Positions 2,845-43,856 of a stretch of DNA of 64,000 bases are shown here, in pieces. The stretch is from an uncultured Desulfobacterales bacterium (lineage in GTDB: Bacteria; Desulfobacterota; DSM-4660; Desulfatiglandales; HGW-15): NCBI GenBank assembly GCA_964450535.1, contig CAYVDE010000003.1, forward strand, positions 20,585 to 84,584, read 5' to 3'. Under the pieces are notes generated by a model that did not search any database, was not told the origin of the DNA, and worked only from the letters and a program-made list of their open reading frames with translations. How positions within the stretch are numbered: the first letter of the stretch is position 1; each line of letters starts with the position of its first letter. The position numbers were made by a program, and so were the translations under genes.

Positions 2845-3344
2845 AGATTGCGTCCGTATCTAGTTGTTCGTCGCTCCTGCAAAAGGTGTGTTAAGACGCC
2901 TTGCATTATGGCGCAACGGTTATGTCCTGACGGCGAGTGAAGTATGTCTTTTGGAAGGGCTGCTGTAACCTGGCTGTATAGTTGAAAAAAGCTCGTATCA
3001 GGGAGGCGTGGGCGAGGGAGACGCCTTAAAGGGGGTCCTTTTGAAAGGGTGCAAAAGCCGACACGATACGGCCATTGGCCGGAATAGGCGTGAGAGTGCG
3101 TCTGGTTTTTTCATGGGAGTATGAATATACACGTACCGAGCGTTTGTCAATGGCAAGCACAAAATGAGGGCCGGAAATACAAAACCAGTATGGCTGCACG
3201 ATATTCGGACAGGGACACTATGCAATGAAGCTTGTGTTGAATATCCCGGGAGGTTGTGTCAGTGTCGTTGTGAGTGCCGGCACGCAAGTCCCATCGGGTG
3301 GGATATGATTTCAGTAAACCTTATTTGTTGAGAACGAAAATCCA

Positions 3345-4214
3345 ATGTGGCCGGGAGCAAGAAAAGAGGAGCTGGTCCGCATTGCAGGAGAGGGCGGGCC
3401 TGTTCTGGTATATGACGGCGAAACCCTGAACGATATCGTGTTCGACCTGCTCTGCCTGGATTGCGTGGACAGGATGCTCTTTGACCTGGGCCTGAGCTCC
3501 TGCCCGGAACTTCTGGAGGCGCTGGGCAGGTTGGGCGCGGGTTTCCAGTGCCGCTCCCCTGAGGATGCGGCGGCGGTTCGCGGAATTTACCGCGGTGATG
3601 AGGGATTGGCTGTTTACCTCATACAGGATTATGCTCAGGCAGGCGGAAAAGCGAGCGCTCATTACGGCATGATACCGGCCATCCCTCTCTCCGGGATTAC
3701 GGGGGGTGATTCAGAAGGCCTTCGGGAGCGAGACGTGCTTTTAGTACTACACCGCCCTGTCTCCAGCGGAAAAGACCCCGGTGTCGCTTCTTGCCTTCGG
3801 GAGCTGGATCGCTTGCATGCCCGGGTAAGGGGCCTGTACCTGTCTTGGGAGCGGGGACCTGAATTCTATGAGACAAAACAGGACCTACTGGACTGGCAAA
3901 CCATAGCAGGGCGGGATGGAATACTGGTTCCGGCACGGGGCATGGGAATTGTCCTCGAAAGAGAGACCGGCGTTTTGGACTTGGATTCTACGGCGAGAAA
4001 CCTCGAGGAATTGAAGTCTATCTTTCCGGATGGGGCGGTCTGGGTGGAGCCGGGGGCTGAGTTCTTGTCTTTGGCCACGGCGCTGGTGGTGCCCGCAGAC
4101 GGTCAGGCGCGTGTCTTGGGTCCGGGCAACCTGCTGCTCGATGACTTTGAAGAGGATTCTCTAAAAAAGGAGCATTACCTCAGAGCCCGGAGGATCTGCC
4201 AGGTCCCTCTTTGA
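3345..4214 (+). CDS. hypothetical protein with weak resemblance to the N-terminal barrel of Orn/DAP/Arg (fold-type III PLP) decarboxylases, apparently lacking the PLP lysine
   Basis: GPVLVYDGETLNDIVFDL resembles the TP-x-YVYD-x-x-L start of LysA/SpeC-type enzymes, and LGAGFQCRSPEDAAAV resembles G-x-G-F-D-x-x-S-x-G-E-L. The expected (Y/F)AVKAN position reads LFDLGLSS. Only 289 aa. No obvious RBS. Confidence 0.45.
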   Translation: MWPGARKEELVRIAGEGGPVLVYDGETLNDIVFDLLCLDCVDRMLFDLGLSSCPELLEALGRLGAGFQCRSPEDAAAVRGIYRGDEGLAVYLIQDYAQAGGKASAHYGMIPAIPLSGITGGDSEGLRERDVLLVLHRPVSSGKDPGVASCLRELDRLHARVRGLYLSWERGPEFYETKQDLLDWQTIAGRDGILVPARGMGIVLERETGVLDLDSTARNLEELKSIFPDGAVWVEPGAEFLSLATALVVPADGQARVLGPGNLLLDDFEEDSLKKEHYLRARRICQVPL

Positions 4215-4231
4215 AAGGACGACGGAAATTA

Positions 4232-6415
4232 ATGAACAAAAGTCACTTACAACGCGTTGCAAATGAGCTCGGCTTGACTTCCGGGCATGTGAAGGCCGTG
4301 GCCCGGCTGCTTCAGGATGGGGCCACGGTGCCCTTTATATCCCGCTACCGTAAAGAGGCTACAGGCTCCATGGACGAGGTCCAGGTGACGGCTGTTCGGG
4401 ATCTTTTGGCCCGGCTCGAGGAACTGGATAAGCGCAGGGAGGCGGTCGTAAAAAGCCTCACCGAGCGGGGACTCCTCACAGACGATCTCAAGGCGGGTAT
4501 TCAAGCGGCCGAGACCCTGGCTGTACTTGAAGACATGTACCTCCCGTTCCGACCCAAGCGCCGGACCCGCGATACCGTTGCCAGGGAAAAAGGACTGGAG
4601 CCTCTGGCCGCGCTCCTTTTCGAGCAGGACCCTTCCACCTCCCCGGAGAAACAGGCAGCGGCCTTCGTGGACCCTGAAAAGGGCGTAGAAGGGATAGAAG
4701 ACGCCCTGGCCGGAGCCCGGGACATCATGGCCGGGTGGGTGAACGAGAGCCGGGCAGCCCGTGAAAGGATGCGGAAACTTTTTAAAGAAGAGGGTGTGTT
4801 CAGGGTGAAGGTGGTGCCGGGCATGGAGGAAGAGGGCGCCAAGTACCGCGACTACTTCGATCTCGAAGAGCCTGTGAGCAATGCCCCTTCCCACCGGGTA
4901 CTGGCCATGCGCAGAGGCGCACGGGAGGGAATCCTGGATCTTCGGGTGTCCCCGCCGGAGGACAAGGCCGTGGCGATCCTCGAGGCGCTGTTTGTCAAGG
5001 GGGAGGGTCCTGCTTCGGAGCAGGTCAGGGACGCCGTGCATGACAGCTGCCGAAGGCTCCTCTGCCACGCCATGGAAACAGAGATTCGAGTGGAGACAAA
5101 AAAGCTGGCGGACGAAGACGCTATAAGGGTCTTTGCCGGGAACCTCAGGGAGCTTCTCCTCTCACCGCCACTGGGGCAAAAGCGGGTCATGGCCGTGGAC
5201 CCCGGCATCCGGACCGGGTGCAAGGCCGTATGCCTGGACCGCCAGGGGGGACTGCTGGCCACGGAGACTGTATTTCTTGCGGGATCAGGCGCTGCCAAGG
5301 ACAGGGCCGGGGATACACTTCGCCGCCTCTGCCGGGAGCATCGGGTGGAGGCCGTCGCCGTGGGTAACGGGACCGGCGGCCGGGAGACCGAGGCCTTTAT
5401 TCGAGGGCTGGACCTGCCAGGAGAGATCCCCGTGATCCTGGTTAACGAGAGCGGGGCGTCCATCTACTCTGCCTCGGACGTTGCCCGCAAGGAGTTCCCC
5501 GACCTGGACCTGACCTACAGGGGGGCGGTGTCCATCGGCAGGCGGCTCATGGACCCGTTGGCCGAGCTTGTCAAGATCGACCCCAAATCCATCGGGGTGG
5601 GACAGTACCAGCATGACGTGAATCAGACGGCCCTCAAGCGAAGCCTGGACGACGTAGTGGTGAGCTGTGTAAACGCCGTAGGCGTGGAGGTGAATACGGC
5701 CAGCGAGGAGCTCCTGAGCTACGTGTCCGGGCTGGGTCCACAGCTCGCCTCAAACATCCTGTCTTACCGCGGAGAGAAAGGACCGTTCCGCTCGCGTGAA
5801 CAACTCAAGGATGTGAGCCGTCTCGGCCCCAAGGCGTTCGAGCAGGCGGCCGGATTCCTGCGCATCCGGGACGCGGAAAACCCCCTGGACGGAAGCGCGG
5901 TCCACCCGGAATCCTACGGCGTTGTGGAGGCCATGGCCCGGGACCTTGACTGTTCTGTCCGGGACCTAATGGAACTGGAAGACCTTCGAAGAAAGATCAG
6001 ACTCACCGACTACGTAACAGAGACCCTCGGGCTTCCTACACTGAACGACATCATGGAGGAGCTGTCCAAGCCTGGCAGGGATCCCCGGGAGCGCTTGGAA
6101 CCCATATCCTTTGCAGAGGGGATACAAACGATCGGGGACCTGACGCCGGGAATGAAGATTCCCGGTGTGGTGACCAACGTGACAGCCTTCGGCGCTTTTG
6201 TGGACGTGGGCGTTCATCAGGACGGGCTGGTACACGTGAGCCAGATGGCGGACAGGTTCATAAAGGACCCTTCGGAGGTGGTTCGCTTGAACCAGCGGGT
6301 CACGGTAAGGGTCCTGGAGGTCGATCTGGCCCGGAAACGGATATCGCTCTCCATGCGCTCCCAGGGGGAAAGGCGGAAGCCCGGGGAATCCTCTCACAGA
6401 CACCTCTCGCAGTAA
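4232..6415 (+). CDS. tex: Tex/YhgF transcription accessory protein (S1 RNA-binding domain)
   Basis: Start reset to ATG 4232 (the track start is TTG 4211). VPFISRYRKEATG motif, YqgF/RuvC-like and HhH regions, C-terminal S1 domain (GMKIPGVVTNVTAFGAFVDVG). Confidence 0.9.
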   Translation: MNKSHLQRVANELGLTSGHVKAVARLLQDGATVPFISRYRKEATGSMDEVQVTAVRDLLARLEELDKRREAVVKSLTERGLLTDDLKAGIQAAETLAVLEDMYLPFRPKRRTRDTVAREKGLEPLAALLFEQDPSTSPEKQAAAFVDPEKGVEGIEDALAGARDIMAGWVNESRAARERMRKLFKEEGVFRVKVVPGMEEEGAKYRDYFDLEEPVSNAPSHRVLAMRRGAREGILDLRVSPPEDKAVAILEALFVKGEGPASEQVRDAVHDSCRRLLCHAMETEIRVETKKLADEDAIRVFAGNLRELLLSPPLGQKRVMAVDPGIRTGCKAVCLDRQGGLLATETVFLAGSGAAKDRAGDTLRRLCREHRVEAVAVGNGTGGRETEAFIRGLDLPGEIPVILVNESGASIYSASDVARKEFPDLDLTYRGAVSIGRRLMDPLAELVKIDPKSIGVGQYQHDVNQTALKRSLDDVVVSCVNAVGVEVNTASEELLSYVSGLGPQLASNILSYRGEKGPFRSREQLKDVSRLGPKAFEQAAGFLRIRDAENPLDGSAVHPESYGVVEAMARDLDCSVRDLMELEDLRRKIRLTDYVTETLGLPTLNDIMEELSKPGRDPRERLEPISFAEGIQTIGDLTPGMKIPGVVTNVTAFGAFVDVGVHQDGLVHVSQMADRFIKDPSEVVRLNQRVTVRVLEVDLARKRISLSMRSQGERRKPGESSHRHLSQ

Positions 6416-18970: not shown

Positions 18971-21658
18971 TCACTGGGTCATGACGGCAATGTTGACGGT
19001 GGATTTTTGACCTTTCAGGGTCGACTTTATTACTATCTGGCTGGTGTCCTTCTGGAGTTGAAGAATGCCCACCGGCCCTTGGACCACGGCCATTCCGGGC
19101 TGCCAACCCTTAGAGCTCATGGCCTGCTTGTAGAAGTTCACCACTTCTTCCGGGGAAGCCGGTATTTCCATGTCCACCCGGCTGCTGCCGCCCATTGTGG
19201 TCTCCTTGAGCACCGTGGCGCCTTTCATCAGAGGGATCTCACCGTTTAGAATCGTAGTGCTGTCTGAAGCCTCGCCGGTCGTCTTCGTAGCCGGAGCTTT
19301 TCCGGTTGGGGGCTCCGGCGCTGGAGCCGGCTCGGGGGTTTGTTTCGTTGCGGGTTCCGGGGCCTCTTTTTCAACGGGAAAAGAGGCGTTGACTGTAGTG
19401 GCCTTACCGGATTGGACCTGTATCTCACGAATCTCCCGGACCGATCGATCTGCTCGATCTTCCACTTTTGCCGAGTAGGTGCCGGGCAGGACATTGTGCT
19501 CGGCCGGTGAGCCGTCTTCCCTGGTCCAGCCGTCGCCCATGTACTTGCCGTCATCCTGCAGGAAGATCTTGACATATGCCTTGTAAGGCGCGCCGTTTTT
19601 GGTGGCTGTGACTTTAAGCACACCGCCCGCAACAAAGGTGGCAAACCTCTCCACGGTCTGATCCGCCTTGACCTCGACGTTTTCGATCCAGACGATCGGC
19701 CGCTGTTTTACGCTCTGGTCCTGGAGCCTGATCTTGTAGATTCCGGGCAGGAGCTCGTACTCGGCTGGTGAGCCGTCCTCCCTTGTCCAGCCGTCGCCCA
19801 TGTACTTGTCGTCTTGCTGGTGAAAGACCTGTACATAGGTCTTGGCCGGGGCGTTGTTTTTGACGGCCTTCACGCGCAGGATGCCGCCCTCTCCGAAGGT
19901 GGCGATGCGCTCCACGGTCTCTCCGGGTTTGACCTCTACGTCGTCTATCCAGATCTCAGGCCGCTGTTTTACGCTCTGGTCCTGGAGCCTGATCTTGTAG
20001 ATTCCGGGCAGGAGCTCGTACTCGGCTGGTGAGCCGTCCTCCCTTGTCCAGCCGTCGCCCATGTACTTGTCGTCTTGCTGGTGAAAGACCTGTACATAGG
20101 TCTTGGCCGGGGCGTTGTTTTTGACGGCCTTCACGCGCAGGATGCCCCCCTCAGCGAAAACAGCCGTTCGTTCTACGGTCTCTCCTGCCTTGACCTCCAC
20201 ACCACGAATCCACACCTCGGGCTGGTGGGCCAGATCTGTGTCCCTGAAACGGAGGTCATAGGCCCCGGGTTCTACGGGCGCGCCGCGTCGACCCGGGTCG
20301 GTCCCGGTTCGTCCACTTTTGATCACCTGGTTCTCGCCGGCCGCCATAACCTCGACCGCCGCGGAAAAAATTTTCTCGCCGCGGAGGGCGGTCAAACGAA
20401 GAAATCCCTGTTCCCGGGTCTTGCGCACCACCTCTCTGGCTGCCGCCATAAACTCCCCGGCATTGGCGGCCGTATAGTATCGGCCGCCTCCAGCCTCAGC
20501 CATGCACTCCAGTTGCTCCTTTTCATTTTCAGTGACATCAAAGCCGATAACATGCATCACGAATTTGATACCGGCCTCCTTGAGTTCTTTCACCAGCCCG
20601 CAGGGATCCGGATCGCATGTCTCCATGCCGTCGGAAACCAGGATGATGGTGGTCTCGTCCTCCAGGTGCTTGATCCGCTCCGCCGTCATGCGGGCTGAAC
20701 GGTAAATCGGAGTCTTGCCGCGTGCGTTGAGGCCCTGGATGATCTTGATCAGTTTTGACTTGTCGATTTTTGACAAAGGGACCAGTTCTTCCACATCATC
20801 ACAGTCCCCTTTGCGGCGGTGACCGTAGGCCACCAGCCCCACCACGGAATCGTCCGGGAGATCCTGGATCAGGCCTGTCATGACTTCCTTGGCAATTACG
20901 ATCTTGGCCTTGCCCTCGATTTGGCCCCACATGGAGCCCGAGGCGTCCAGGATGAAGATGAGGTTTCCGGAAGAAACGGCCTGCGAAGCAGGTTTTGGGA
21001 CGTCGCGATCGGATGAAGACGAGGTTGCGGGAGCAGATGGCGGTGGCTCGGAGGGTTTGGGTTCAGGGCCTCCGTCCATATCCATTTTGGTATACCCGGC
21101 GGGGATCTCAAAGAGGGCCGGGTCCACAGGCCCCTCCTGAATATTCCGGAGTTCAAGGACCGGGTTTTCGTTCATGCCGAAACGTTCTTCCCGAATGATG
21201 TGGTTGAGTTTTTTCGAGATCCATACCTTGACGGCGATATCTGATTTCCCGGGCTCCGAATAGAGAAATGTGTCGCATTCATAGCCGTTCACTGTCTCGA
21301 CAGGTCCCGGTTTTTCGGTCATGCCTTTCCTGGTGGCGGCCCACCCGGCAAGGGGATTCATAAGGATGGTTTTTTCAAGGTCCTCCATCTCTACATACTG
21401 TTTCATCTGAGGATTCAGCCCCCAGGTTATGCCGGTGTCCCGATTCACAATGGAGGGAAAGGGCGGGATGTGCATGGGCCCTTGGGTCTTTTGAAGACGA
21501 TACAGAGGATCCTTGACATGGAGCTCAAACGAGTACGGATCACCCGGCCCTGTGATGACGACGTCGGCCGTGAACTCCGCCGCCGCACCCGGGGTAGATA
21601 AAAAACCCATTACCCATGCCGTTACAACCGCCGCCATAAGTAACCTTGCCCTTCGCAT
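18971..21658 (-). CDS. large secreted von Willebrand factor A (VWA) domain protein with repeated beta-sandwich-like modules
   Basis: 895 aa. Signal peptide MRRARLLMAAVVTAWVMGFLSTPGAAA. MIDAS DASGSM...SDG VWA domain. At least three 87-aa repeats (GDGWTREDGSPAE core). P/S/T-rich linkers. Confidence 0.85.
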   Translation of the reverse strand: MRRARLLMAAVVTAWVMGFLSTPGAAAEFTADVVITGPGDPYSFELHVKDPLYRLQKTQGPMHIPPFPSIVNRDTGITWGLNPQMKQYVEMEDLEKTILMNPLAGWAATRKGMTEKPGPVETVNGYECDTFLYSEPGKSDIAVKVWISKKLNHIIREERFGMNENPVLELRNIQEGPVDPALFEIPAGYTKMDMDGGPEPKPSEPPPSAPATSSSSDRDVPKPASQAVSSGNLIFILDASGSMWGQIEGKAKIVIAKEVMTGLIQDLPDDSVVGLVAYGHRRKGDCDDVEELVPLSKIDKSKLIKIIQGLNARGKTPIYRSARMTAERIKHLEDETTIILVSDGMETCDPDPCGLVKELKEAGIKFVMHVIGFDVTENEKEQLECMAEAGGGRYYTAANAGEFMAAAREVVRKTREQGFLRLTALRGEKIFSAAVEVMAAGENQVIKSGRTGTDPGRRGAPVEPGAYDLRFRDTDLAHQPEVWIRGVEVKAGETVERTAVFAEGGILRVKAVKNNAPAKTYVQVFHQQDDKYMGDGWTREDGSPAEYELLPGIYKIRLQDQSVKQRPEIWIDDVEVKPGETVERIATFGEGGILRVKAVKNNAPAKTYVQVFHQQDDKYMGDGWTREDGSPAEYELLPGIYKIRLQDQSVKQRPIVWIENVEVKADQTVERFATFVAGGVLKVTATKNGAPYKAYVKIFLQDDGKYMGDGWTREDGSPAEHNVLPGTYSAKVEDRADRSVREIREIQVQSGKATTVNASFPVEKEAPEPATKQTPEPAPAPEPPTGKAPATKTTGEASDSTTILNGEIPLMKGATVLKETTMGGSSRVDMEIPASPEEVVNFYKQAMSSKGWQPGMAVVQGPVGILQLQKDTSQIVIKSTLKGQKSTVNIAVMTQ
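19698..20146. repeat. intragenic tandem repeat, period 261 bp, with a 188-bp identical block
   Basis: 19698-19885 is base-for-base identical to 19959-20146. A diverged third unit lies at about 19437-19697. Confidence 0.9.
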
Positions 21659-21727
21659 CCTGTCCTCCTGTTCACATGCTTGGCATGCATGAGGTGAGTT
21701 CCTCAGAGTCCGCCCGTCAAAAAAAAC

Positions 21728-23731
21728 TCATTCCAAACCCTTGACGAGTTCAGTGATTGTCCCCTTGGCGTCACCGAAAAGGAGGATCGTCCCATCATCT
21801 TTGTATAATGGATTCTCCACACCGGAGTAGCCGGGTTTCTCGTCCAGGTTGCAGACAACGACTTTTCCTGCCTCATGGGCCATCAGGATGGGCATCCCTG
21901 AAATGGGCGTGTCTTCGACGGAGATGGCCGTGGGGTTGACCACGTCGCACGCCCCGACGATCAGGGCCAGGTCTGTGTCCTTGAACTCCGGATTGATCTC
22001 GTCCATCTCGAACAGCTTGTCGTAATCGACGTCAGCCTCTGCAAGCAGCACATTCATGTGCCCCGGCATTCTCCCTGCTACGGGATGAATGGCGAACTTG
22101 ACCTGCTTTCCCATGTCCTCGAGCTTGTTCGCAAGCTCGCAGACCGCGAACTGGGCCTGGGCCAGTGCCATGCCGTAGCCGGGAATAATGATTATTTTGC
22201 CGGCAGCTTTCATGGCAGAGACAACCTGTGACACGCTGTCCGTTTTTTCGCCTTCGGGTGACGGTCCATCATCGGCCGCATCATCTTGGGGCGAATCAGT
22301 GGCAACCGTTCTCTTGATGAGTTCGGTGACTGTCCCCTTGGCGTCACCGAAAAGGAGGATCGTCCCGTCCTCATCATATAGAGGGTTCTCCACACCGGAA
22401 TAGCCGGGCTTCTCATCCAGGTTGCAGACAATGACCTTTCCTGCCTCATGGGCCATCAGGATGGGCATCCCTGAGATGGGCGTGTCTTCGACGGAGATGG
22501 CCGCGGGGTTGACCACGTCGCACGCCCCCACGATCAGGGCCAGATCTGTGTCCTTGAACTCCGGATTGATCTCGTCCATCTCGAACAGCTTGTCGTAATC
22601 GACGTCAGCCTCTGCAAGCAGCACATTCATGTGCCCCGGCATTCTCCCTGCTACGGGATGAATGGCGAACTTGACCTGCTTTCCCATGTCCTCGAGCTTG
22701 TTCGCAAGCTCGCAGACCGCGAACTGGGCCTGGGCCAGTGCCATGCCGTAGCCGGGAATAATGATTATTCTGCCGGCGGCTTTTATAGCCGAAACAGCCT
22801 GTGAGAAGTCGTCCGGTTTTTCGGTTCCCAGTGACGTCTCCTCATCGGCCGCCTCACCTTGAGGTTGCTCCGGGGGATCCGTTTGCAGGGCCTCGCCGCC
22901 CGCCGGTCTCGCTGAGATCTTCTGCTGGATGCCGACAAAGACCTTGAAAAGATTCCTGTTCATGGCCCTGCACATCACGTGGGTCAGGATGGAACCGGAG
23001 GCCGCCACGGTGGCGCCGCAGGCAATGAGCAGGCGGTTTTGAATGATGATGCCGCAGAACGCCGCGGCCAGGCCTGCTGTAGCGTTCAGAAAGGATATAA
23101 GCACAGGCATGTCGGCTCCTCCTATGCGTATGGAGAACAATACGCCCAAGAGAGCCGATAAAAAAATTACGATAACCAGATAAATTGAATTAAAAGACCC
23201 AAAAGAGGTCCAGGCAAAAACGCAGATTGCTCCTATTATCAGTAGGTTAAGGGAAAGGAGCCAGCCGTGGGCCGGGAGTCTCGTGGGCGTCTGTCTCAGC
23301 TTGCCCGCCAACTTTCCGCTGGCCACCATGCTGCCGCTGAAGGTGGCCGAGCCTATTACAAGGCCGAGGAGGCCTGAGACCCTGTTTACGGCCGCAAGTG
23401 CGGCCCCGGTTCCTGTCAGTTCGACAAAGGCCACGAGAAAGGCCGCGATTCCTCCCGCGCCGTGCTGAAAGGCCACCATGGCGGGTATCTGTGTCATGTT
23501 GACCCTCACCGCCACGACCCAGCCGAAGGCCGATCCGATCAGCAGTGCTGCAAGCACAACCATTGGGGAGAGGATGTCGTGCCTCAAGAGGACCAGCAGG
23601 AAAGCGCAAAGAATGGCGAAAGCGGCAGTCAGGTTCCCGATCCTGGCTCCACGCGGCGCCCTGAATTGCCGAATCCCTATAATCAAAATGAGAATAATGG
23701 CCGCGTCAAACAAAAGGTGCATCAAATTCAT
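21728..23731 (-). CDS. pntB: NAD(P) transhydrogenase subunit beta with tandem duplicated C-terminal NADP(H)-binding domain (dIII-dIII)
   Basis: 667 aa. N-terminal polytopic dII domain, then two copies of IIIIPGYGMALAQAQ...HPVAGRMPGHMNVLLAEA...GACDVVNP...LFGDAKG. The start overlaps the pntAB stop (ATGA). Confidence 0.9.
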   Translation of the reverse strand: MNLMHLLFDAAIILILIIGIRQFRAPRGARIGNLTAAFAILCAFLLVLLRHDILSPMVVLAALLIGSAFGWVVAVRVNMTQIPAMVAFQHGAGGIAAFLVAFVELTGTGAALAAVNRVSGLLGLVIGSATFSGSMVASGKLAGKLRQTPTRLPAHGWLLSLNLLIIGAICVFAWTSFGSFNSIYLVIVIFLSALLGVLFSIRIGGADMPVLISFLNATAGLAAAFCGIIIQNRLLIACGATVAASGSILTHVMCRAMNRNLFKVFVGIQQKISARPAGGEALQTDPPEQPQGEAADEETSLGTEKPDDFSQAVSAIKAAGRIIIIPGYGMALAQAQFAVCELANKLEDMGKQVKFAIHPVAGRMPGHMNVLLAEADVDYDKLFEMDEINPEFKDTDLALIVGACDVVNPAAISVEDTPISGMPILMAHEAGKVIVCNLDEKPGYSGVENPLYDEDGTILLFGDAKGTVTELIKRTVATDSPQDDAADDGPSPEGEKTDSVSQVVSAMKAAGKIIIIPGYGMALAQAQFAVCELANKLEDMGKQVKFAIHPVAGRMPGHMNVLLAEADVDYDKLFEMDEINPEFKDTDLALIVGACDVVNPTAISVEDTPISGMPILMAHEAGKVVVCNLDEKPGYSGVENPLYKDDGTILLFGDAKGTITELVKGLE
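21731..22818. repeat. intragenic tandem duplication, period 573 bp (191 codons)
   Basis: 21972-22196 is identical to 22545-22769 (225 bp). Flanks differ by scattered substitutions. Confidence 0.9.
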
Positions 23732-24030
23732 CGTCCTGTCGCTCCCGCCTTGTTTTTCTTCTTGAACATTTTTAGCATGCGGTCGGTGATCACAAAGCCG
23801 CCCAGCACGTTGAATACGGCCGTAGTTATCGCCACAGCCCCCAGCAGTTTTTCAAGGGCGGTGGTCTCAACGGCGAACAGCAGCAGGGCTCCAAGGATCG
23901 TAATGGCTGAAATCGCATTCGTCATGGACATCAACGGGGTGTGGAGCAACGGCGGCACCCTTGATATAAGAAAATAGCCTATAACAAAGGCACCCACAAA
24001 AACGGCCAGCATCAGGAGCAACTCAGACAT
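23728..24030 (-). CDS. pntA: NAD(P) transhydrogenase subunit alpha part 2 (membrane)
   Basis: 100 aa with three predicted TM helices. LHTPLMSMTNAISAITILGAL and FVITDRMLKMF motifs. Confidence 0.9.
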   Translation of the reverse strand: MSELLLMLAVFVGAFVIGYFLISRVPPLLHTPLMSMTNAISAITILGALLLFAVETTALEKLLGAVAITTAVFNVLGGFVITDRMLKMFKKKNKAGATGR

Positions 24031-24063
24031 CAGATATCACCTTTCTTACCTGAATCGTTTCTA

Positions 24064-25221
24064 CTAGGCGCCCATGGCCTTCAAAGCGCCGGCGTGTAAG
24101 ATTTTCCCTTTGTGAGTGACAAGAGAATGGTTGACTATTTCGTCATCCATGTCGAATGTGTCGAGGCCTTTCTTGTACAGGTTCTCTACGTAGTAGTACA
24201 TGTTGTTGGCATAAAGCCATGTGGAATGCACCGGCAAAGAGCCCGGGATGTTCTTGATGCCTGAGATGAGAACGCCATGCCGGTATTCCTCGCGCCCCGG
24301 GCTGGTGAGGGCGCAATTGCCTCCCTGATCCACAGAGACGTCAATGATGACCGAACCCGGCTTCATCCCCTGGACCATGTCTTCGGTTATGAGAGTCGGC
24401 GCCACTTCACCCGGCACAAGGGCGCTCAGCACCACAACATCGGCCTCATAGACCAGGGGTTTCAGGGCGGCTCGTTCCTCCTCGAGGGTGCCTTCAGGCA
24501 AGGATTTAGCATAGCCCCCTTCACCCAGCGCCAGGTCTTCAAGTACTTCATAGCCTGCAATCTTGGCTCCGAGGCTCGCTGCTTCATTTCTGGCGGCATC
24601 CCTGATGTCAACTGCTTTTATGACTCCCCCGAGCCTCTTGGCGGTGGCTGTTGCCTGTAGACCGACAACGCCCGCGCCGATGACCAGAAAATTCGCGGGC
24701 TTTATCATGCCTATGGAGGTGCCGATCATGGGAATGAACTTGGGCAGATGGTTTGCCGCTATCAATACGGCCTTGTAGCCGGTGACCGTACTCATGGAAG
24801 TGAGGGCGTCCATGCGCTGGGCCCTCGAGATCCGTGGGATGCCGTCCATGGTGAAGGATGTGACGTTCTTGTCTCTCAGTTTTCTCACCATGTCGTGGTT
24901 GCCCGGTGAGGCGGGATGAAGGAAGGTTATAAGCGTGCTGTTTTCCCTAATATATTCAAGTTCGTGCCTGTTCGCGGCCTCATTCAGCGTAGGCTCCTTC
25001 ACCTTGAGGACAATGTCCGCCCCGGTAAATACGGATTCCCCGTCAGGTGCTATTCTCGCTCCGGCCTTTTCATACTCCTCATTGGACCGGAAAACTCCTT
25101 CTCCAGCAGCATCTTCAACGAGCACATCAAACCCCATTTTAATAAATTTCTCGACCGTCTCAGGGACAGCGGCAACCCTTTTTTCATTAATCATGACTTC
25201 CTTTGGTATTCCTATCAGCAT
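24064..25221 (-). CDS. pntA: NAD(P) transhydrogenase subunit alpha part 1 (dI, alanine dehydrogenase-like)
   Basis: 385 aa. MLIGIPKE..NEKRVA start, Rossmann VIGAGVVGLQA. Confidence 0.9.
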   Translation of the reverse strand: MLIGIPKEVMINEKRVAAVPETVEKFIKMGFDVLVEDAAGEGVFRSNEEYEKAGARIAPDGESVFTGADIVLKVKEPTLNEAANRHELEYIRENSTLITFLHPASPGNHDMVRKLRDKNVTSFTMDGIPRISRAQRMDALTSMSTVTGYKAVLIAANHLPKFIPMIGTSIGMIKPANFLVIGAGVVGLQATATAKRLGGVIKAVDIRDAARNEAASLGAKIAGYEVLEDLALGEGGYAKSLPEGTLEEERAALKPLVYEADVVVLSALVPGEVAPTLITEDMVQGMKPGSVIIDVSVDQGGNCALTSPGREEYRHGVLISGIKNIPGSLPVHSTWLYANNMYYYVENLYKKGLDTFDMDDEIVNHSLVTHKGKILHAGALKAMGA

Positions 25222-25356: not shown

Positions 25357-25803
25357 TTAGTCGTAACTTACTCGAGTGGCTTCATCAGCCATGGCAGGTG
25401 CGATCAGGGGCTTCCACTCGTCGGGCTCCCATGTGTTCAGGTGGGTGTGCATATCCAAATATTTTTTGGGAATCGGATGCGTGCCCACAACCACACTGAC
25501 GCCGAAGCGCTTTTCCAGAAAGGCCTTGAATGTCTTGATATGGGGGCAGGGTGGATACCCGACCACCAGACCGGTGGCCAGGTGGATGGCTTCAGCTCCG
25601 TTCTTCACCATCTCTTCCCCGGCATACTCTATGTTGCCTCCAGGACATCCGTCGCAGCTCGTATAGCCGACCAGTTCCACCTCCACGTCCGCGTAGATGC
25701 TGAAGGCCCCTTCCCTGTTCCTCATGGCCCGAAGGCACTTCCCGCCTGCACAGCGGCGATAGCGATCACAGATGATTATTCCGATTTTTCTGGTTGTTTC
25801 CAT
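25357..25803 (-). CDS. CGGC domain-containing protein
   Basis: CDRYRRCAGGKC and YTSCDGCPGG motifs. Start ATG 25803 preferred; ATG 25818 forms an ATGA overlap with the upstream gene and is the alternative. Confidence 0.75.
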   Translation of the reverse strand: METTRKIGIIICDRYRRCAGGKCLRAMRNREGAFSIYADVEVELVGYTSCDGCPGGNIEYAGEEMVKNGAEAIHLATGLVVGYPPCPHIKTFKAFLEKRFGVSVVVGTHPIPKKYLDMHTHLNTWEPDEWKPLIAPAMADEATRVSYD

Positions 25804-25814
25804 TGGGTCCCCTT

Positions 25815-26234
25815 TCATTCTCCTTTGGTGGCGCTTTGCCAGGCCTCGTCCAAGCGGGCCTCGATGTACGCGATCAACTCATCGTCCCATTCCTCGAGGT
25901 CAAAACACATGGCATCCTCACCGAGCAGACCCTCGGGGACAAAGTCGGCCTTTTCATCGTCGTCCTGAATCATTTCACCGTAGAAGCAGATGGAGAGCCA
26001 GCGCGGCTGGTCTTCGATAACATCCACCATCACAAACAGGTCCTTATCTTTCTGATTCTCATGGACTGCACGAAGAGAATGGGTCAGACCCGGCCTTGGC
26101 ACGAAATCCAGCATTACCCCGTCTTTGTTTTCCAGGTATGCCTTGAATCGCAGAAAGGCCTCCCTGTTCCTCTCCGGTGTGTCCTTCCATTCATTCAGAA
26201 ATGCTTCCAGTTCCTGCTTAGAGTCGGTTTTCAT
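25815..26234 (-). CDS. hypothetical acidic protein (139 aa)
   Basis: Start reset to ATG 26234, with AAGGAG 8 nt upstream. No motif recognised. Confidence 0.55.
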   Translation of the reverse strand: MKTDSKQELEAFLNEWKDTPERNREAFLRFKAYLENKDGVMLDFVPRPGLTHSLRAVHENQKDKDLFVMVDVIEDQPRWLSICFYGEMIQDDDEKADFVPEGLLGEDAMCFDLEEWDDELIAYIEARLDEAWQSATKGE

Positions 26235-42554: not shown

Positions 42555-43448
42555 TCAAAAACGCCCCGCGGCGATTCTCAGGTGATCTACCCACACCTTC
42601 ACAATGGAATCCAGTTCAGCCGTTCCCCTCAGCACGGAGACGCACTCAATCCCTGCTGCCGTTAGAGTGCTTTTCCAGGAGTCATCATCGTCTCCAGCCA
42701 TGTCATTTACCGCGTGATCGCCGGCAACGGCCATGAAAGGCACAAGAAAGGCCTTGCGGATTTTCCGTTCGGAAAGCACATCCCGAATCTCCTCGATGCT
42801 CGGGATTCCGTGCACCGTTCCCAGGAAGACGTTCGAATCTCTTTTTCGGAGTTCAACCGCCAGGGCGACGTAAAGTGCGTTTGCCGGGTGGTCGGTGCCG
42901 TGGCCCATGAACACGATGGCCTCGTTCTTTTTCCTTCCCTTTGGCTGTTTTTCGAGCAATGCGTCCGCCACCCTCTCGATGTCTTCCTGTCCGTTCAGCA
43001 GGGGCCCTCCCACCATGACCTTGTTAAACCCGGGGACCATGCCGGAAAATGCCTGGACGTTGCGATTGAGGTCGTGGAACTCCCGCCCGCCGATGGTGTG
43101 AAGCGACTGCACGGCCACGTGTGTGAATCCCTCGTCCATCATACGGGCCAGGGCCATTTGAGGGGAGTCGATTTCCAGACCTGTCTCAGCCAGCTTTCGC
43201 CTAACGGTTTTCGAAGTGAAGGCCCAGCGTACGGGTAAGTCCGGGAAAGCCTTTCTTACCATCTTTTCCACGTTGTCGAGCGCGGCCCTGGCCTCGGGCA
43301 CCGTCGTGCCGAAGGCGGCTAGGAGTATCCCGTGTTTTTCGGGACGCTCATGGGCCTCGTGTCCGTGTCCGTGGTGTCCGGCGTAAGCGTGACAGCAGAG
43401 GACGAAAAAGACAAAAACAACGGCCGAAACGATCGATACTTTTTTCAT
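42555..43448 (-). CDS. cbiK: sirohydrochlorin cobaltochelatase CbiK with N-terminal signal peptide and His-rich tract
   Basis: Start reset to ATG 43448 (AAGGAG RBS). MKKVSIVSAVVFVFFVLCCHAYA signal, then GHHGHGHEAHERPEKHG, then the CbiK core (GILLAAFGT...VQSLHTIGGREF...MGHGTDH). Confidence 0.85.
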   Translation of the reverse strand: MKKVSIVSAVVFVFFVLCCHAYAGHHGHGHEAHERPEKHGILLAAFGTTVPEARAALDNVEKMVRKAFPDLPVRWAFTSKTVRRKLAETGLEIDSPQMALARMMDEGFTHVAVQSLHTIGGREFHDLNRNVQAFSGMVPGFNKVMVGGPLLNGQEDIERVADALLEKQPKGRKKNEAIVFMGHGTDHPANALYVALAVELRKRDSNVFLGTVHGIPSIEEIRDVLSERKIRKAFLVPFMAVAGDHAVNDMAGDDDDSWKSTLTAAGIECVSVLRGTAELDSIVKVWVDHLRIAAGRF

Positions 43449-43510
43449 CAGGGTGATCTCCTTTCTCTCGAAGGATGGTGAAACCGCAGGGGGCTCATAG
43501 AGAAGGGGCC

Positions 43511-43547
43511 AAAAAAAACCCCCACGTCTTGAAACCTGACGTGAGGA
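43511..43547 (-). terminator. intrinsic terminator forming the expression platform of the cobalamin riboswitch
   Basis: Minus strand: CCTCACGTC-aggtttcaa-GACGTGGGG followed by TTTTTTTT. Lies between the aptamer and the cbiK RBS. Confidence 0.75.
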
Positions 43548-43614
43548 CTGCACCCAGCTTCCTTGATCCTCTTCCCGCGCAGGCCGCACCCCGCAGCCGG
43601 CCGGTAGGCCGTGA

Positions 43615-43822
43615 TTTACAACGGGCAGGTCTTCTGGCTCACCCGGGCTGCAGACTCGCCTTCCCACCCCGCTTATTGCGGGACAGTGGCTTTACCCCGA
43701 TTTGGAGGGTTGCCTGCATCCGCGCTGCCCCGGTGCAATGCACAAGGGCCGGGTTTACAGCGGCGGGACCGCTCCCGCTTTTCACGGGATTCCCTATTAA
43801 GCGGCTGCACCCGTTGTCTTAC
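43615..43822 (-). promoter_or_regulatory. cobalamin (B12) riboswitch aptamer
   Basis: Minus strand reads GACAACGGGTGCAGCCGCTTAATAGGGAATCCCGTGAAAAGCGGGAGCGGTCCCGCCGCTGTAA ... GCCACTGTCCCGCAATAAGCGGGGTGGGAAGG ... GAGCCAGAAGACCTGCCCGTTGT. The conserved core, the B12 box and the closing P1 helix are all present. Confidence 0.88.
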
Positions 43823-43826
43823 TGAA

Positions 43827-43856
43827 ACCATAGAGAGTGGGCGGGGGATTTGTCAA
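43827..43856 (-). promoter_or_regulatory. candidate sigma70-type promoter driving the riboswitch-cbiK operon
   Basis: Minus strand TTGACA (43856-43851), 18-nt spacer, TATGGT (43832-43827). The predicted start is a few nt before P1 of the riboswitch. Confidence 0.45.

Follow-up and report, generated by a model that had tools for sequence, protein, structure and literature searches.

The proton-translocating transhydrogenase is a membrane-bound enzyme with three kinds of domain: a soluble NAD(H)-binding domain I (dI), a membrane domain II (dII) and an NADP(H)-binding domain III (dIII). In its three-subunit type, which occurs in Thermus thermophilus and also in Rhodospirillum rubrum, dI is a protein of its own, accompanied by a small membrane subunit and by a beta subunit. 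The key question about the enzyme is how one mobile dIII per protomer couples the passage of protons through dII to hydride transfer at dI. The three-domain architecture has been called universally conserved in a structural review (PMC5742237), and more than one dIII per beta chain is found neither among the solved transhydrogenases nor among the enzymes described in the literature examined. Here, a pntAA-pntAB-pntB operon is considered in which the beta subunit, PntB, has two. It lies in a stretch of 64,000 nucleotides (nt) from an uncultured Desulfobacterales bacterium (assembly GCA_964450535.1, contig CAYVDE010000003.1), which is called the window, and to which all coordinates refer. The doubled dIII is a real, recurrent and unrecognised variant of a well-known enzyme.

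The operon is intact, and its gene set and gene order (dI alone, small membrane subunit, beta) are those of the T. thermophilus enzyme (PDB 4O9U). All three genes are adjacent and co-oriented on the minus strand. The first, pntAA (24064-25221, minus), encodes an alpha1 subunit of 385 amino acids (aa), the soluble dI, which has the Pfam families AlaDh_PNT_N (1.5e-42) and AlaDh_PNT_C (6.6e-61) only; since no transmembrane region is fused to it, the enzyme is assigned to the three-subunit type. The second, pntAB (23728-24030, minus), encodes the small membrane subunit alpha2 of 100 aa (PNTB_4TM, 9e-31), and its stop overlaps the start of the third, pntB (21728-23731, minus), which encodes a beta subunit of 667 aa. 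The latter matches the Pfam family PF02233 (PNTB) with 749.8 bits, at a curated cut-off of 31.7, in two stretches: residues 13-473 cover profile positions 9-455 of 456, and the second stretch is the second copy of dIII. These matches show the locus to be an intact operon for a predicted membrane-bound, proton-translocating transhydrogenase of the three-subunit type.

The order of parts in PntB, as given by the list of open reading frames (ORFs), Pfam, structure alignment and an AlphaFold2 (AF2) model, is dII-linker-dIII-linker-dIII. The membrane domain (aa 1-270; 22922-23731, minus), with nine long helices in the AF2 model, is delimited by alignment to 9l76_C and 4o9u_B. It is followed by linker 1 (aa 271-305; 22817-22921, minus), which is acidic and proline-rich, by dIII copy 1 (aa 306-477; 22301-22816, minus), by linker 2 (aa 478-492, TDSPQDDAADDGPSP; 22256-22300, minus) and, at the C terminus, by dIII copy 2 (aa 493-667; 21731-22255, minus). 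Copy 1 is a phmmer domain at residues 306-475 that matches 4j16_C (3e-53) and folds confidently in AF2, while copy 2 is a phmmer domain at residues 497-667 that matches 1e3t_A (1e-50) over residues 496-663. In the AF2 model of the whole chain there are three confident modules, and the per-residue confidence (pLDDT) is below 50 only at residues 270-305 and 478-492, which makes both linkers predicted disordered segments. The alignments and the model together show a beta subunit that is predicted to consist of a membrane domain and then two folded dIII heads on disordered, acidic linkers. Pfam, phmmer and AF2 agree here with the preliminary description of the locus, which had noticed, in a chain of 667 aa, two complete dIII modules with all their motifs, joined by an acidic linker.

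The PntB of the window aligns end to end with the T. thermophilus beta chain 4o9u_B (1.2e-86) and with the E. coli beta chain 9l76_C (2.5e-84), and it has in common with them the proton-path residues, the hinge residues and most motifs of the NADP(H) site. Residues H90, D207 and R259 of dII align with H91, D213 and R265 of E. coli beta, and the positions of the proton-path histidine and of the D213-R265 hinge are invariant or near-invariant in 60 relatives. In each copy of dIII the motifs GYGMA, HPVAGRMPGHMNVLLAEA, GACDVVNP and LFGDAKG are present, and the nucleotide-site motifs GYGMA and HPVAGRMPGH and the aspartates D405 and D596, which occupy the position of beta-D392, are canonical in both. 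There are three differences from the known enzymes. The beta chain of the window has two complete dIII modules, whereas known transhydrogenases have one; the latter had been said in the preliminary description, and it holds for the solved structures and the literature examined. The linker between dII and dIII is about 35 residues long in the AF2 model, in comparison with the 14-19 residues stated for all transhydrogenases (PMC5742237), and linker 1 is by alignment about 17 residues longer than the linker of E. coli. Loop E, finally, has N-L-D where the known enzymes have K-R-S or K-R-G.

The second dIII arose by tandem duplication, in frame, of a unit of 191 codons that consists of a linker and a dIII, inside a bona fide pntAA-pntAB-pntB operon, and the sequence comparison shows the duplication to be real, as had been proposed. 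Linker 2 is homologous to the 3' half of linker 1, and a direct repeat with a start-to-start spacing of 573 nt is seen at 21740-22039 and 22313-22612. When the DNA is compared base by base with itself at an offset of 573, there are no mismatches over 225 nt (21972-22196 on the side of copy 2 and 22545-22769 on the side of copy 1, both minus), mismatches are scattered on both sides of this tract, and similarity is gone beyond about 21740-22310. This confirms the period, the identical core and the changed flanks that had been read from the letters. Tandem Repeats Finder returned nothing, its longest period, 500, being smaller than 573, and the offset comparison was used in its place.

The contrast between core and flanks is the evidence for gene conversion. 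Between copy 1 and copy 2, 32 of 275 aligned flank sites differ, as against 0 of 225 in the core. A run of 225 nt free from differences has, at the flank rate, a probability of 8e-13, and was reached in none of 200,000 permutations. By Nei-Gojobori counting, the flanks have 17 synonymous and 16 non-synonymous differences, so that the proportion of synonymous sites that differ (pS) is 0.25 and the proportion of non-synonymous sites (pN) is 0.08, while pS in the core is 0. Selection on the protein cannot erase synonymous differences, and therefore the core (identical also at its synonymous sites and bounded by older, diverged flanks, as expected for concerted evolution) is best explained as a recent gene-conversion tract, insofar as this can be read from sequence.

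How old the duplication is can be estimated from the nearest relatives of the window PntB, which all have a single dIII: the protein P0021 (contigs L001 and L002) with 90% identity, the protein of contig L014 with 89% and that of L008 with 81%, from four independent assemblies. Among GTDB species representatives the best matches have 89% and 81%. Between the window and L001, pS is 0.32 for pntAA, 0.17 for pntAB, 0.23 for dII and 0.22 for the dIII core. The flanks of copy 1 have a pS of 0.21-0.23 to L001 and of 0.25-0.26 to copy 2. The synonymous divergence between the flanks of the two copies is thus about the same as that between the operons of the window and L001, and from this it follows that the copies parted at about the time when the organisms did; judged by these values, the separation of the copies is shown to be about as old as the split from the nearest sequenced relatives, and the duplication is not very recent.

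The preliminary description had left two explanations of the identical core side by side, gene conversion and a very recent event, and of these only the former agrees with the flanks. Suppose that the duplication were very recent, that no conversion had occurred, and that the flanks had changed fast while the core had not yet diverged. The two copies are, indeed, 92% identical in protein, and an internal copy must accommodate a new linker at its C terminus, which could speed up change at the ends. However, 17 of the 33 counted flank differences are synonymous, the pS of the flanks equals the divergence of the operon from its nearest relative, the flanks of copy 1 are as far from copy 2 as from L001, and, in the core, none of about 46 synonymous sites has changed (P about 2e-6). 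A very recent duplication without conversion is accordingly a highly improbable explanation.

The divergence from L001 is not uniform along the operon. Over the region compared (21580-25221), pS is highest, 0.3-0.47, in the 5' part of pntAA and at the end of dII, and it is as low as 0.08 in the first 100 codons of pntB and 0.07 in the flanks of copy 2, downstream of which 150 nt are about 95% identical to L001. This mosaic suggests that the two lineages have exchanged homologous DNA. The core of copy 2, in turn, is of the window type (pS 0.22 to L001) and not of the L001 type, and the single dIII of L001 and L002 resembles copy 2 on both flanks and is not a hybrid of copy 1 and copy 2. Two histories may account for this: either the duplication took place in the common ancestor and was then lost in L001 and L014, or a related allele was captured and conversion followed. 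That the relatives have a single dIII because their assemblies collapsed the repeat was also considered and is unlikely, as the contigs L001 and L002 run straight through the gene and metagenome-assembled genomes made with SPAdes and with MEGAHIT agree.

The same mosaic bears on the possibility that the second dIII was created by the metagenome assembly itself, either by stutter in a repeat or by a chimera of strains. The exact PntB of the window is present on one contig only, an exact look-up in the contig index gave no record, the single-dIII relatives come from four assemblies, and a second strain could look like the flanks of copy 2 and the DNA downstream of them, with their closeness to L001. 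Stutter, however, would not yield copies with different linkers and with 32 differences in 275 flank sites. The core of copy 2 is of the window type, and the junction, ...ELIK followed directly by RTVATDSPQDD..., leads from the end of a dIII into the middle of a linker, has no counterpart in the single-copy relatives and contains no shared k-mer that could mislead an assembler. Furthermore, the reading frame and all motifs are intact, and independent assemblies have yielded this architecture hundreds of times, among them the complete genomes of Desulfosarcina. The case against an assembly error is thus an argument from the unique junction, the diverged flanks and the many parallel cases, and by this argument such an error is very unlikely.

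Conversion of the centre of dIII does not seem to be confined to the window. In P0006, a relative with 74% identity, the two copies have a pS of 0.02 in the core and of 0.34 in the flanks, that is, the same pattern of an identical centre between diverged ends. The sequence of 666 aa is found in both ENA and JGI assemblies, with an unchanged gene neighbourhood. Since the pattern is shared, and since by sequence it arose independently in P0006, conversion of the central dIII is apparently recurrent.

The preliminary description implied that a PntB of this kind is unique, which it is not. Of the 120 best clusters at 90% identity, 98 are of the two-dIII, 17 of the three-dIII and 2 of the four-dIII form. 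The PntB of the window is one case among hundreds of multi-dIII database clusters that have gone unrecognised as a set. Two-copy proteins come from Desulfosarcina variabilis, D. widdelii, Desulfobacula, Desulfococcaceae and Desulfotignum, and also from Coriobacteriia, Myxococcota and Gemmatimonadales; three-copy proteins come from Desulfopila, Desulforhopalus and Bacillota/Clostridia. The four-copy form is found in Bacteroidales, where ten separate entries taken from NCBI and ENA assemblies all have a length of 1036 aa. The Bacillota, Bacteroidales and Coriobacteriia cases include metagenome-assembled genomes. Complete genomes with a two-copy PntB are those of Desulfosarcina variabilis str. 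Montpellier and D. widdelii. Examples are the proteins of D. widdelii (BBO73192.1, two dIII), Desulfopila sp. IMCC35006 (three) and Bacteroidales (HHW82072.1, four). They are like the PntB of the window in architecture, in their three-subunit operons, in an N-x-D loop E and in acidic linkers rich in Ala, Pro and Ser; the linkers between dIII domains are 5-29 aa long and rich in A/E/S/P/T/K/D. To estimate prevalence, HMMER was run with one dIII against all of 1.84 billion representatives of 50%-identity clusters, and matches with E <= 1e-10 were counted. This gave 2433 dIII-containing proteins, about 24 of which have at least two stretches, so that multi-dIII forms make up about 1% of PntB diversity.

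Multi-dIII proteins are common in some clades but, as far as the literature search reached, not characterised, and the remark in the preliminary description that no such architecture was known has stood: none is present among the solved structures, and no multi-dIII transhydrogenase was found described in a full-text literature search, with most subscription journals outside its reach. The proteins are annotated only as 'NAD(P)(+) transhydrogenase subunit beta', and papers on sulfate reducers treat their PntAB as ordinary. Under this generic annotation, metabolic reconstructions of sulfate reducers from their genomes do not reveal the variant.

In each of the 12 multi-dIII loci whose upstream sequence was examined, the operon is of the three-subunit type: dI is a protein of its own (about 385-395 aa), and it is followed by a small membrane subunit (about 90-110 aa) and by beta. 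These loci are L003-L007, L009-L013 minus duplicates, and L060-L062; the contigs of L015, L030 and a partial L012 are too short or cut to show more of the upstream genes. Genes for sigma-54-dependent activators are seen upstream of pnt in multi-dIII loci of different phyla (L003/L004, 1150-2529; L061, 79-1285; L062, 1-611), and at that place the window has a gene for a CGGC-domain protein (25357-25818) and an unannotated ORF of 222 aa. In the Bacteroidales locus L060, the four-dIII pntB (3001-6111) is followed by the cytochrome bd oxidase genes cydA and cydB from 6959. One two-dIII PntB of 1150 aa (P0088) carries an aminotransferase domain (PF00155).

The extra copies have been kept for very different times in different lineages. 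In the largest clade, the main Desulfobacterales clade with 86 two-copy clusters, copy 1 and copy 2 of the same protein are 61% identical, while orthologues from different species are 73% identical in copy 1 and 74% in copy 2, and this means that the duplication is old in the clade. The two copy types share 68 invariant columns and are distinguished by 1 type-specific column. In an alignment of 60 two-copy proteins, neither copy departs from the motifs GYGMA, HPVAGRxPGHMN and GAxDxVNP, the last of which contains the Asp of beta-D392. The shared invariant columns and the long retention of both copies imply that both heads have been maintained as working dIII, and the alignments thereby show the extra copies of this clade to be selected rather than junk, as far as conservation can tell. 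Subfunctionalisation of the two old types finds no support in a single type-specific column. The three-copy proteins of Desulfopila and Desulforhopalus derive from the old two-copy clade by a further duplication of copy 1. In about 25-30 other lineages the copies of a protein are nearest to each other, at identities from 72% up to 100%, and such lineages appear to have been duplicated or homogenised separately. The two copies in the window are 92% identical and as far from one old copy type as from the other, and by this measure they represent one of the younger or homogenised cases, apart from the old clade.

From the younger cases it might be argued that the second dIII is real but neutral and transient, a passenger of unequal recombination that is tolerated and has no effect on the enzyme. 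The nearest relatives of the window have one copy; two near-identical proteins of one 90%-identity cluster have two copies (P0035, 669 aa) and three (P0408, 854 aa); several lineages have copies that are 99-100% identical, pointing to very young expansions; and multi-copy forms are only about 1% of the 50%-identity clusters. Yet the flanks in the window have a pN/pS of about 0.3 and neither frameshifts nor stops in spite of a pS of 0.25, the old clade keeps both its copies, and recurrence in about 25-30 lineages from at least five phyla argues for an advantage. A neutral passenger is on balance unlikely, and retention of the doubled dIII as a maintained variant is the preferred reading.

Loop E is the part of the site in which the PntB of the window and its subfamily deviate from the known enzymes. 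In copy 1 (22394-22426, minus) and in copy 2 (21821-21853, minus) it aligns, as CNLDEKPGYSG, with FKRSMNTGYAG of E. coli, so that K424-R425-S426 is replaced by N-L-D in both copies. K424 and R425 presumably contact the 2'-phosphate of the nucleotide. The same columns have KRS in E. coli and sheep and KRG in T. thermophilus, and all three solved structures shown in the alignment have K-R-x. The KRS motif has been named as part of the NADPH site (PMC9529548). N-x-D, with L, F, M, Y or R as the middle residue across the subfamily (N-[LFMYR]-D), is found in 240 of 240 close homologues inspected, single- and multi-dIII alike, and N and D are invariant in both copies of the 60 two-copy proteins. The domain instances of the 150 best representatives divide about equally between N-x-D and K-R-x. 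The N-x-D subfamily spans Desulfobacterota, Planctomycetota, Verrucomicrobiota, Bacteroidota and others. A search for homologues of dII only, in which the query's own cluster and the closest relatives are absent, was used solely to establish N-x-D in single-dIII relatives. There are also a few proteins of the K-R-S type with two dIII (P0259, and P0260 with two KRS loops), and duplication is thus not confined to the N-x-D branch.

These observations raise the possibility that the two heads divide the labour, one staying on dII and the other on dI, or that their chemistry is altered towards NAD(H) or another nucleotide. The second alternative draws on the loss of both basic residues and the acidic residue in place of S426, in both copies of the window and with N and D invariant in the subfamily. 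Against it speak the remaining motifs of the nucleotide site, which are canonical in both heads; the N-x-D loop of the single-dIII members, by which the loop is not tied to duplication; and the consideration that an NAD/NAD enzyme would have no net reaction, dI having kept the Asp typical of NAD(H) sites. As for division of labour, the copies in the window are 92% identical, the identical tract spans the centre of the domain from GYGMA to just before GACDVVNP, and the loop E motifs, which lie outside the tract, are also the same in both copies, which makes specialisation between them unlikely; the single type-specific column of the old clade points the same way. Taken together, a division of labour or an altered chemistry is rather improbable as the explanation of the doubled dIII. 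The loss of KRS may nevertheless bear on the nucleotide specificity of the N-x-D branch.

What, then, could a second, equivalent dIII do? In the present models of the enzyme, each head flips between two stations with the protomers out of phase: dIII has to be face-down on dII at one time and face-up on dI at another, and the motion of the two protomers is forced to be in anti-phase (PMC13635403). The dimer (dI)2 binds one dIII tightly, with a dissociation constant below 60 nM, and a second one about 1000-fold more weakly; the second would clash sterically (PMC5742237). When docked on dII, a head would exchange its nucleotide under the control of the proton, and when docked on dI it would transfer hydride. 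In three-subunit enzymes the free (dI)2 dimer would be held on the complex only through a dIII, and if so, a second tethered dIII would serve as an additional swinging hydride carrier or dI-docking head. It could bind (dI)2, or stand by with its nucleotide in place during the exchange that the other head undergoes at dII. By this (dI)2 would stay on the complex and more loaded heads would be present locally, and the extra dIII could stabilise the complex and relax the strict anti-phase alternation of the protomers.

This proposal has its model in other enzymes with swinging arms. The E2 chains of 2-oxo-acid dehydrogenases have tandem lipoyl domains, one to three of them in pyruvate dehydrogenase, and polyunsaturated fatty acid synthases have tandem acyl carrier proteins (ACPs). 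As in these tandems, a small mobile domain would carry its bound group back and forth between two sites of catalysis; it occurs several times in a row, on flexible linkers in which Ala, Pro and charged residues are frequent, and the number of copies, which are often near-identical, varies from species to species. The length and composition of the inter-dIII linkers fit the picture of a tandem carrier domain. Unlike lipoyl domains and ACPs, to which it has no homology, dIII carries a dissociable nucleotide and not a covalent prosthetic group, and its docking on dII is coupled to proton translocation.

What is said here on the structure and evolution of the doubled dIII is very probably correct, while the mechanistic step, an extra dIII that acts as a tethered carrier or docking head, is drawn by analogy and is tentative, with the odds leaning somewhat against it. 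For the explanation as a whole (a real duplication, gene conversion, a maintained variant and an extra carrier head) a probability of about 0.6 is estimated. The following points weigh against it. The closest relatives, with about 80-90% identity (P0021/L001/L002, L014, L008, P0059 and P0096), have a single dIII, and these relatives, together with the cluster that mixes two and three copies, imply that the copy number is labile and may be only weakly selected in the lineage of the window. The single-dIII members of the subfamily are also of the three-subunit type, so that the subunit type does not discriminate between one head and several. The predicted TM-score (pTM) of the AF2 model is 0.57, by which the relative placement of the two heads is not confident. 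With KRS lost and an Asp at position 426, the heads may not bind NADP(H) as the known enzymes do. The function of multi-dIII enzymes, finally, is inferred from analogy with other carrier domains.

A further, doubtful possibility is that PntB with two to four heads and N-x-D loops forms a mechanistically distinct class of transhydrogenase, in which extra tethered heads would break the cycle of one head per protomer in strict anti-phase that is assumed for all transhydrogenases. The free dI dimer could then be kept in place by one head during the cycle of another, or a single proton channel could serve several heads in turn, and the loss of KRS may mean a changed preference for nucleotide or a changed release step. 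The argument in the preliminary description, that a dIII-dIII beta subunit would alter the stoichiometry of the hydride-transfer site, is a reasonable one to draw from the sequence. The natural enzymes with two, three and four heads are ready-made test cases for obligatory alternation, and they bear on whether retention of (dI)2 limits three-subunit enzymes and on how the number of heads relates to the rate or to the ratio of protons to hydride.

Some further features of the window may be recorded. A promoter-like site is present within pntB at 22218-22191. Separate expression of copy 2 from an internal promoter is not supported, as 4 promoter-like sites were counted where 2.6 are expected by chance. 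The neighbours of the pnt operon in the window encode the CGGC-domain protein, a VWA-domain protein, a histidine kinase, an amino-acid ABC transporter and a Lon-like protease, and no functional link to the operon is seen from these neighbour genes. The VWA-domain gene (18971-21658, minus), directly downstream of pntB, has a product of 895 aa with a tandem repeat of its own: at 19475-20257, three units of 261 nt encode three modules of 87 aa, with 100, 77 and 65% identity to the reference unit. On the minus strand at 43607-43829 there is a match to the cobalamin riboswitch (Rfam RF00174, 78.4 bits, E 1.2e-17), just upstream of the minus-strand ORF 42555-43667, the predicted start of which it slightly overlaps.

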